In this document: positions 24,979 to 25,812 of the stretch, piece by piece | Layout: each line of letters begins with the position of its first letter | Position numbering within the stretch: the stretch's first letter is position 1 | The notes under the pieces: generated by a model | The model's input: the letters and a program-made list of their open reading frames with translations, nothing else | What the model was told of the DNA's origin: nothing | Databases searched by the model: none | Source of the DNA: Singulisphaera sp. GP187 | GTDB taxonomy: Bacteria; Planctomycetota; GCA-002687715 | NCBI GenBank assembly: GCA_945907755.1 | Contig: CAMDTN010000007.1 | Location: 856-64,855 of the forward strand | Direction: 5' to 3' | Length of the DNA stretch: 64,000 nt | Made by a program: the position numbers and the translations under genes

Positions 24979-25276
24979 GCGCGAACGGCCTTGATCGCCC
25001 TGTCGACCGGTCGGATGCACTCCAACGGACCGCTCCGCCTCACCAAGTCAGCGCTCCGCTTCCGCCAACGTTGGGCATGGGCATGTGGCCGAGCGCAGAG
25101 GTCACCGGCGGAGTGTGCTCCATGGGCGCGGCAGCCGGTCGTCTTCGCCCGACCGGCCGAGCGCCCATGGGCAACACGGAGCCACGCCTGCGAGCGCAAT
25201 GCAAGACCGACCGTGCGCTGCAGAGGCGGAGTGTGTCCGATGGGCGCGGCAGCCGACCGTCTTCGCTCGACCGGGC

Positions 25277-25341
25277 GAGAGGAAAGAAAAAGACCCCCGC
25301 GTGAGCGAGGGTCTTTAGCTTTCACGAAGTCGGGGCGAGAG
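25277..25341. repeat. 65-bp direct repeat, copy A (identical to 25460–25524); carries a copy of the last 11 nt of tRNA-Pro plus a terminator hairpin
   Basis: Exact sequence identity by eye: gagaggaaagaaaaagacccccgcgtgagcgagggtctttagctttcacgaagtcggggcgagag. Confidence 0.85.
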
Positions 25342-25459
25342 CCCACCGCAGTAGCGGTGGGGAGATTTGACGCCGTGCGTAGCGCGGCGCAGATCCTCTG
25401 CGGAGGAGGCCACGCCTCGGGGCCGAGGCCGCAGGGTGCGCAGCACCCAACGACCCGAT

Positions 25460-25524
25460 GAGAGGAAAGAAAAAGACCCCCGCGTGAGCGAGGGTCTTTA
25501 GCTTTCACGAAGTCGGGGCGAGAG
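25460..25524. repeat. 65-bp direct repeat, copy B, abutting and overlapping the 3' end of tRNA-Pro
   Basis: Identical to 25277–25341. Its last 11 nt are the 3' end of the tRNA-Pro gene. Confidence 0.85.
25469..25499 (-). terminator. Rho-independent terminator downstream of tRNA-Pro (minus strand); a second copy lies at 25286–25316
   Basis: On the minus strand: AGACCCTCGC-TCAC-GCGGGGGTCT followed by a TTTTCTTTCC U-rich tail. Confidence 0.6.
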
Positions 25525-25587
25525 GATTTGAACCTCCGACCTCTTCCACCCCAAGGAAGCGCGCTAGCCAGGCTGCGCCACGCCCCG
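25513..25587 (-). tRNA. tRNA-Pro (anticodon GGG)
   Basis: Reverse complement reads CGGGGCGTGGCGCAGCCTGGCTAGCGCGCTTCCTTGGGGTGGAAGAGGTCGGAGGTTCAAATCCTCTCGCCCCGA. 7-bp acceptor stem; D-arm GCGCAGCCTGGCTAGCGC; anticodon loop TTGGGGT; T-loop GGTTCAAATCC. Closely resembles proteobacterial tRNA-Pro. Confidence 0.9.
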
Positions 25588-25812
25588 ATTGCTTCAAGGA
25601 TCGGCTACAGCAAGCTGCAGCACGAGCCCCAAGCGGGGCCATTGTTACGAATATGCCCCTCAGCGGTCAAGCAGCGAGCTACGTATGGCTCATCATCGCC
25701 CCATCGACCGGTGAGAACATGGTTGAGGCGAGACAATATGCCTATTTTTCCCGGGGGGGGCCTCTGCGGTAAAGTTCTTCGTGTCACCGTTCGAATCGTG
25801 AGGAGACTTTCC

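Follow-up and report, generated by a model that had tools for sequence, protein, structure and literature searches.

Does a second copy of the 3′ end of a tRNA gene, lying a short distance downstream of the complete gene, record the insertion of a mobile element, or has it arisen by local duplication? The question is raised by the tRNA-Pro(GGG) gene in a 64-kb stretch of the genome of Singulisphaera sp. GP187 (contig CAMDTN010000007.1), referred to here as the window, whose positions are used throughout. The end of this gene, together with its trailer and terminator, is present twice. The original prediction, made from the DNA letters, took the duplication as the footprint of an integrative element at a tRNA attachment site, with a tandem-duplication hotspot as the alternative. 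The comparisons described below demonstrate that the native terminator block of the tRNA gene has been duplicated in this lineage, and there is no sign of a mobile element at the locus. The patch is described here as a lineage-specific tRNA-linked repeat (TLR). The explanation favored here, with somewhat more confidence than doubt, is that it was formed, and is still being altered, by local duplication (illegitimate or slipped-strand) with subsequent unequal recombination between its direct repeats, no integrase being involved.

Structure of the duplicated block

The tRNA-Pro(GGG) gene lies on the minus strand at 25513–25587, as originally predicted, and is recognized by both ARAGORN and the Rfam tRNA model (60.2 bits), with calls that begin at 25512 or 25513. 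Its CCA end is not encoded, the discriminator A being followed by CTT. A repeat search of the window returned a direct repeat of 74 nt with 96% identity (25268–25341 and 25451–25524) that contains a perfect 65-bp core, termed block A, for which BLAST gave E = 4.5e-32 and of which 0 of 100 shuffles produced a match. Both copies are read on the minus strand, A1 at 25460–25524, overlapping the end of the tRNA gene, and A2 at 25277–25341, a spacing of 183 bp, and their positions and identity are those originally predicted. In the direction of the tRNA, block A consists of the last 12 nt of the gene (CTCTCGCCCCGA), a 12-nt trailer, a 12-bp hairpin (AAAGACCCTCGC-TCAC-GCGGGGGTCTTT) and then TTCTTTCC. 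The hairpin occupies 25472–25499 in A1, where the T-run lies at 25462–25471, and 25289–25316 in A2, and the terminator is a strong one, with a fold energy of -26.4 kcal/mol (z = -6.9). The inclusion of the tRNA end in the repeat was thus correctly recognized, although its length had been put at 11 nt and measures 12 nt. These 12 nt have a single extra copy in the window, that within A2 (25330–25341, same strand), with no third. Most of the block, 53 of its 65 bases, is the tRNA’s own species-specific terminator and not tRNA. A search for the 65-bp unit elsewhere, proposed with the original prediction as a check on whether it borders islands, gave no further match in the window, among GTDB representatives (pattern scan) or in IMG/VR (exact match).

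The two blocks are separated by spacer X (25342–25459, minus strand), a GC-rich segment of 118 bp with four predicted hairpins, among them the perfect hairpin at 25342–25361 (CCCACCGC-AGTA-GCGGTGGG) that had already been noticed. Its predicted fold has an energy of -70.3 kcal/mol (z = -3.55 against shuffles), and the two ends of X are able to pair as an acceptor-like stem. No homolog of X was found in the window, in 1.2 Mb of related loci, in phage and plasmid records or, by exact match, in IMG/VR.

Beyond A2 the repeats continue. In the direction of the tRNA the locus reads tRNA, A1, X (118 bp), A2, R2, U (63 bp), R1 and V (128 bp), ending at the stop codon of a class I S-adenosylmethionine methyltransferase gene (24334–24978, plus strand, identified by Pfam) that is convergent with the tRNA gene and forms the far edge of this expanded spacer. 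From the tRNA end to the methyltransferase stop, the distance is 534 nt.

State of the locus in sister species

A search with the product of the FG-GAP repeat gene, which lies on the other side of the tRNA gene, recovered homologs at 81% identity in a Planctomycetes bacterium metagenome-assembled genome (MAG; P0003, contig L131) and at 59–60% elsewhere (59% for contig L133). Both contigs are syntenic with the window, carrying in common a 1205-aa oxidoreductase, a protein of about 500 aa, the methyltransferase, tRNA-Pro, FG-GAP, a 194-aa protein, GSDH and NMT1. Two other anchors were less informative: the methyltransferase recovered only its own cluster, and the 1209-aa neighbor, searched in genome contigs, gave a best match of 58% among mixed phyla, with no tRNA-Pro synteny. 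The tRNA-Pro(GGG) sequence itself is the same in both sister species and in 30 metagenome loci.

In each sister species there is a single tRNA gene at the locus, identical to that of the window and followed by one terminator, and the methyltransferase stop follows the tRNA end after only 65 nt in L131 and about 88 nt in L133. Since block A aligns with the lone terminator of L131 (78% over 60 nt, E 8e-5), it represents the native trailer and terminator of this tRNA. The difference between these short spacers and the 534 nt of the window means that about 470 bp, the second block A included, were gained in the window’s lineage. In the comparison with relatives that the original prediction had called for, the extra copy of A and spacer X are absent from both sister species, and strains of the window’s own species carry two copies. 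As a separate observation, L131 has at 1839–3047, between its 1205-aa and 506-aa genes, an extra FG-GAP fragment and an open reading frame (ORF) with DUF772, the N-terminal domain of IS5-type transposases, that are absent in the window.

Variation among co-existing strains

Contigs of the same species were found through exact matches to the methyltransferase and FG-GAP proteins in several ENA and Logan samples and in one NCBI MAG, and are 98–99.8% identical to the window. The arrangement A-X-A is present in L001, L002/L010, L003 and L011, all of them MEGAHIT assemblies with k = 141. This k exceeds the length of the repeat, and the duplication is therefore genuine. The two-copy structure is also found in L012, and its recurrence in six independent metagenome assemblies indicates that it is not an assembly artifact of the window. 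A strain with one copy, or with an occupied site, was not found, and three further strain look-ups gave the same or short contigs.

Within this set, X is the most variable segment, with one substitution in L001, eight in L003 and five in L012, against none in A1 or A2 of L001 and L003 and a local baseline of 0.2–2%. The changes cluster in the hairpins of X: a mismatch has been repaired in L003, and in L012 one hairpin has been swapped for an overlapping one. Such a pattern fits weak structural selection or quasi-palindrome template switching, and gives no evidence of conserved base pairs.

The remainder of the spacer differs in its repeat number. L003 has a single hybrid R, that is, one 118-bp R-U unit is absent. 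A short module, S, found once in the window, is duplicated with its spacer at a 55-bp period in L001–L005, and an extra insertion of about 70 bp lies beside the methyltransferase stop in L003 and L008. Two of the repeat-spacer-repeat modules at this locus have thus demonstrably been gained or lost between co-existing strains. Many contigs terminate within this spacer, as is expected of a repeat region that varies in the population. The A-X unit itself may also vary. The SPAdes contig L012 (positions 1–421) reads A-X-A-X-A, with two 183-bp units that are 100% identical and a third A, and both visible A copies share one A-to-T change at the block edge. The first 55 nt of this contig correspond to a typical SPAdes k, so that the presence of more than two A copies is only suggestive; L012 represents either a real copy-number expansion with concerted evolution or the traversal of a loop at k = 55. 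Because the terminal 55 nt may be such a loop, its three A copies were not accepted as proof of copy-number variation.

Neighboring modules and a recurrent motif

Repeat R2 (25225–25279) and repeat R1 (25107–25161), both on the minus strand and 55 nt in length, are 87% identical at a period of 118 bp and enclose spacer U (25162–25224, minus strand, 63 bp). An imperfect pair of about 52 bp had been predicted at 25100–25151 and 25231–25282; the pair is real, and its coordinates were a few bases off. Segment V (24979–25106, no strand assigned) reaches the methyltransferase stop and includes module S (25008–25028, CGGTCGGATGCACTCCAACGG, 21 nt). Together with the arrangement seen in other strains, there are three repeat-spacer-repeat modules, A-X-A, R-U-R and S-T-S, with periods of 183, 118 and 55 bp, and the latter two contain no tRNA sequence. 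None of A, X, R, U and V occurs again in the window, and X, R, U and V have no match in the 1.2 Mb of related loci. Although the R-U unit and X are both 118 bp long, a common origin for them was rejected, their alignment being no better than that of shuffled sequences.

A 12-nt motif, CTCNNCNGGTCG, occurs three times in the 64 kb, at the first bases of X, R2 and R1 (minus-strand starts 25462, 25279 and 25161). It may mark a recurrent site of breakage or recombination, or else be a remnant of the ancestral flank that followed the terminator, where L131 has CTCGTCGG. Neither Pfam nor PHROG matches any of the ORFs overlapping the repeats, and the indels between strains (55 and 118 bp), not being multiples of three, would break any reading frame; the repeat region is accordingly non-coding.

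The tRNA gene and the entire repeat array are also bracketed by an 18-mer, ATCGCCC(TG/CA)TCGACCGGT, at 24994–25011 and 25695–25712, with 16 of 18 positions matching. It holds a locally enriched palindrome motif (CCGGTCG / CGACCGGTCG), and about 0.15 such pairs would be expected by chance. Its interpretation as a target-site duplication was ruled out by the presence of the tRNA gene at the same position in the sister species.

Tests for a mobile element

Islander defines an island in a tRNA gene (tDNA) by a tDNA and a correctly configured fragment of its end, an integrase within the interval and an interval of 2–200 kb, and integrase crossovers are placed at sub-sites in the anticodon loop, the T loop or at the point (J) where T-stem and acceptor stem meet (PMC4383910). 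The present locus resembles such islands and prophages in having a full tRNA gene and a displaced cognate 3′ fragment downstream in direct orientation, with an insertion that is absent from the relatives L131 and L133. The edge of the repeat, 4 nt 5′ of the T-stem/acceptor junction, would suit sub-site J, and would equally suit a coincidental duplication breakpoint. The locus departs from such islands in that the interval is 118 bp instead of 2–200 kb and holds neither integrase nor cargo. In addition, the repeat is mostly terminator, and neighboring repeats without tRNA sequence share its architecture. That no integrase or cargo lies between the copies had been noted at the outset, and only the non-coding X is found there. 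No integrase or recombinase was detected among the ORFs of at least 150 aa scanned across 105–50487, and past A2 the gene order is shared with the sister species, so that these genes are not island cargo. Similarity to phage and plasmid records is confined to the tRNA part, and a matching attP element was sought in IMG/VR, where neither A nor X has an exact match in collections that barely sample this lineage.

Metagenomes were scanned with a 38-mer of the tRNA 3′ end as positive control, which yielded 35 loci, none of this species; in 0 of the 35 is the tRNA 3′ end repeated downstream within 700 nt. Three of the 35 are fragments of the tRNA-Pro(GGG) 3′ end that run from the anticodon loop through CCA and lack a 5′ half (L099:3667–3704, L116:679–716 and L109:1189–1226). 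By their sequence they look like classical displaced tDNA fragments at the ends of islands, and the L099 fragment is adjoined by a 598-aa ORF with a TIR domain.

The proposal of an integrative-element footprint therefore holds for the configuration of the repeat and the empty site in sister species, and fails for integrase, island size and cargo. The more specific suggestion of an attL/attR pair left after excision does not work as a mechanism, since an element that is excised precisely leaves just one copy behind. The tandem-duplication hotspot that had been offered as an alternative is better supported, the neighboring non-tRNA modules having the same form and differing in copy number among strains.

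Relationship to known tRNA-linked repeats

Repeats that directly follow a tRNA gene are known from Escherichia coli, where the 178-bp repeats of tyrT-tyrV and the rtT/RttR RNA were described by Egan and Landy (1978) and Rudd (1999), as summarized in PMC8144298. [quoted passage not shown] The K-12 tyrT locus was checked directly and has three copies at a period of 178 bp downstream of tyrV, the first of which includes the final 19 nt of tyrV, and the end of the annotated RttR coincides exactly with the next tRNA-like end. In rrnA, rrnB and rrnD, the order is 5S-T1-rrB-T2, a small RNA is derived from read-through of T1 (which is 87% efficient), and the intervening sequence ends in an 18-bp copy of the upstream gene’s 3′ end; rrA/B/F are conserved across enterobacterial genera (PMC8144298).

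The window locus shares with the E. coli repeats its position right after the tRNA gene and a unit whose 3′ end is identical to the 3′ end of that gene. The units form direct tandem repeats with a partial last unit, at a period of 183 bp compared with 178 bp, and in both cases there is no integrase and the function is largely unknown. The differences are equally plain. Here 12 nt of tRNA are repeated (15 on the E. coli count, were CCA encoded) as opposed to 18–19 bp, each unit contains a complete strong intrinsic terminator, and there is one such locus in 64 kb, in an uncultured Planctomycetota-like lineage, that is absent from the sister species. The second tRNA gene of the window, tRNA-Val (46459–46531), has no such repeat. 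With rrnA/B/D the locus has in common the succession of a stable-RNA gene, a terminator, a short sequence that ends in a copy of the gene’s 3′ end, and a second terminator. A strong terminator sits between the tRNA and X. It differs in that its two terminators are identical copies and its intervening sequence is poorly conserved even within the species. An Rfam scan of 23000–28000 gave the tRNA and a weak Leu_leader match, at a terminator, with no RtT hit at E <= 1, and the locus is consequently not homologous to the E. coli family. By analogy of architecture, and without sequence homology, the E. coli TLR (tyrT 178-bp repeat/rtT; rrnB T1-rrB-T2) is nevertheless the closest known kind.

Origin of the repeat

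Under local duplication, the trailer and terminator of the tRNA with the last 12 nt of the gene would have been copied once more, 183 bp downstream, and the tRNA 3′ end would be included merely because the duplicated segment began 12 nt inside the gene. The product, two identical strong terminators in tandem between a highly expressed tRNA gene and a convergent methyltransferase gene, could serve as a fail-safe stop, by analogy with E. coli rtT and RrB. The RNA expected from rare read-through would be TLR-like and about 183 nt long (25512 to 25330), or longer if it ended at T2. Several points weigh against this explanation. The main weakness is that duplication by itself leaves the origin of the novel sequences X, R, U and V unexplained, and variation in the copy number of the A-X unit is seen in a single SPAdes contig, L012. 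Two more favor an attachment-site scar: the repeated fragment starts 4 nt before the T/acceptor junction, near Islander’s sub-site J (PMC4383910), and an insertion flanked by target repeats and absent in sister species is what integration would leave. [quoted passage not shown] A full tDNA followed by a 3′ fragment in the same orientation, and an X without chromosomal homolog, would agree with it, as would the use of the same tRNA as a bona fide integration target elsewhere (L099, L116 and L109). Even so, where displaced fragments of this tRNA occur in other metagenomes, their start is the anticodon loop instead of the T/acceptor junction. No integrase is present in the interval or among the scanned ORFs of the window, the interval is far below the 2-kb minimum of Islander (PMC4383910), and there is no phage, plasmid or IMG/VR match. 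An improbable deletion is also needed: both of its ends would have to fall within some 60 bp of the two att copies, and these stayed 100% identical. Finally, the 53 repeated bases of host-specific terminator do not suit such an origin, and a further 300 bp or so past A2 (R-U-R and V), with their identical architecture, are left unexplained. A scar of this kind is a possible but doubtful origin.

Selection for an RNA made of X and the tRNA-like 3′ end, transcribed when terminator 1 is read through, with its end set by terminator 2 or by tRNA-type 3′ processing, and constituting a Planctomycetota counterpart of rtT/RrB, would account for several features: the likeness to rrnB 5S-T1-rrB-T2 and tyrV-rtT, the fold of X and its potential acceptor-like stem, hairpins that persist or are re-created despite the clustered substitutions in L003 and L012, and an A2 that is invariant among strains. 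It is nonetheless improbable. X evolves fastest of all segments, with as many as 8 of its 118 nt changed where the baseline is at most 2%, and in L012 a hairpin is exchanged for a different, overlapping one instead of its pairs being kept. Moreover, X is absent from the sister species and has no Rfam match, RtT included, and for the majority of E. coli TLRs no function is known (PMC8144298). With a terminator 1 of this strength (12 bp, -26 kcal/mol), little read-through is expected. The idea that a whole tRNA-terminator unit was duplicated and that the second tRNA body degenerated into X can draw on the start of X (ATCGGGTCGT, compared with ATCGGGGCGT at the tRNA 5′ end), on a TCAAATC that resembles a T-loop and on a unit that ends with a true tRNA 3′ end. 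It was largely refuted by the Smith-Waterman alignment of X with the tRNA body, which is no better than that of shuffles (p ~0.24), and by the lack of any ARAGORN or Rfam tRNA call in X. The sister species, too, have a single tRNA gene at the locus, and a block A that is 100% identical beside a body without any similarity is incompatible with gradual decay, which makes this origin very improbable.

The duplication of a tRNA 3′ end does not in itself point to an integrative element; searches for islands, by pipeline or by eye, should demand an integrase and an island-sized interval as well. The little-studied tRNA-linked repeat architecture, described earlier in enterobacteria, has here an independent and non-homologous instance in an uncultured Planctomycetota-like lineage, and the sister species, in keeping the ancestral empty state, offer a partial view of how such repeats come about. 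For practical purposes, the locus is a small, fast-evolving intergenic curiosity with tandem terminators, and not a new system. A bolder proposal sees in it a newly born tRNA-linked repeat, in a phylum from which none has been described: one insertion or duplication beside a tRNA 3′ end would have created a terminator-to-terminator unit and a read-through product with a tRNA-like 3′ end. This is considered quite improbable. Were X-A2 expressed and processed like rtT/RrB, or the event mediated by an integrase, the locus would hint at the origin of the E. coli TLRs.

Other features of the locus and the window

Upstream of the tRNA gene, a consensus scan identified a promoter-like site at 25641–25670 on the minus strand (TTGACC, 18 nt, AACAAT). 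L133 and L135 have the arrangement TTGACC...TAAGAAT/TAACAAT upstream of the tRNA as well, and L131 shares the TAAGAAT -10 region. The FG-GAP repeat gene (25813–26925) lies past this site, and between the two is a G8 homopolymer (25753–25760) that is G7 in L003 and L012; the difference reflects a slip in sequencing or assembly, or else the tract upstream of this gene varies in length. CCA is encoded at neither tRNA gene of the window, tRNA-Pro (25513) or tRNA-Val (46531), and the same is true of the Planctomycetota-like L131, L133, L104 and L128. It is encoded at most other metagenome loci that share the identical tRNA-Pro 3′ half. The lack of an encoded CCA in the Planctomycetota-like lineage would imply RNase Z-type 3′ processing followed by CCA addition.

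Elsewhere in the window are three genes that may be defense-related and have no relation to the tRNA repeat. They encode a Fic/DOC protein with a weak match to ‘mobile mystery protein B’ (11671–12849), a DNA methyltransferase-like protein (33758–35032) and a large SNF2-family helicase with matches of the Zorya ZorD and DISARM DrmD type (39704–42919).

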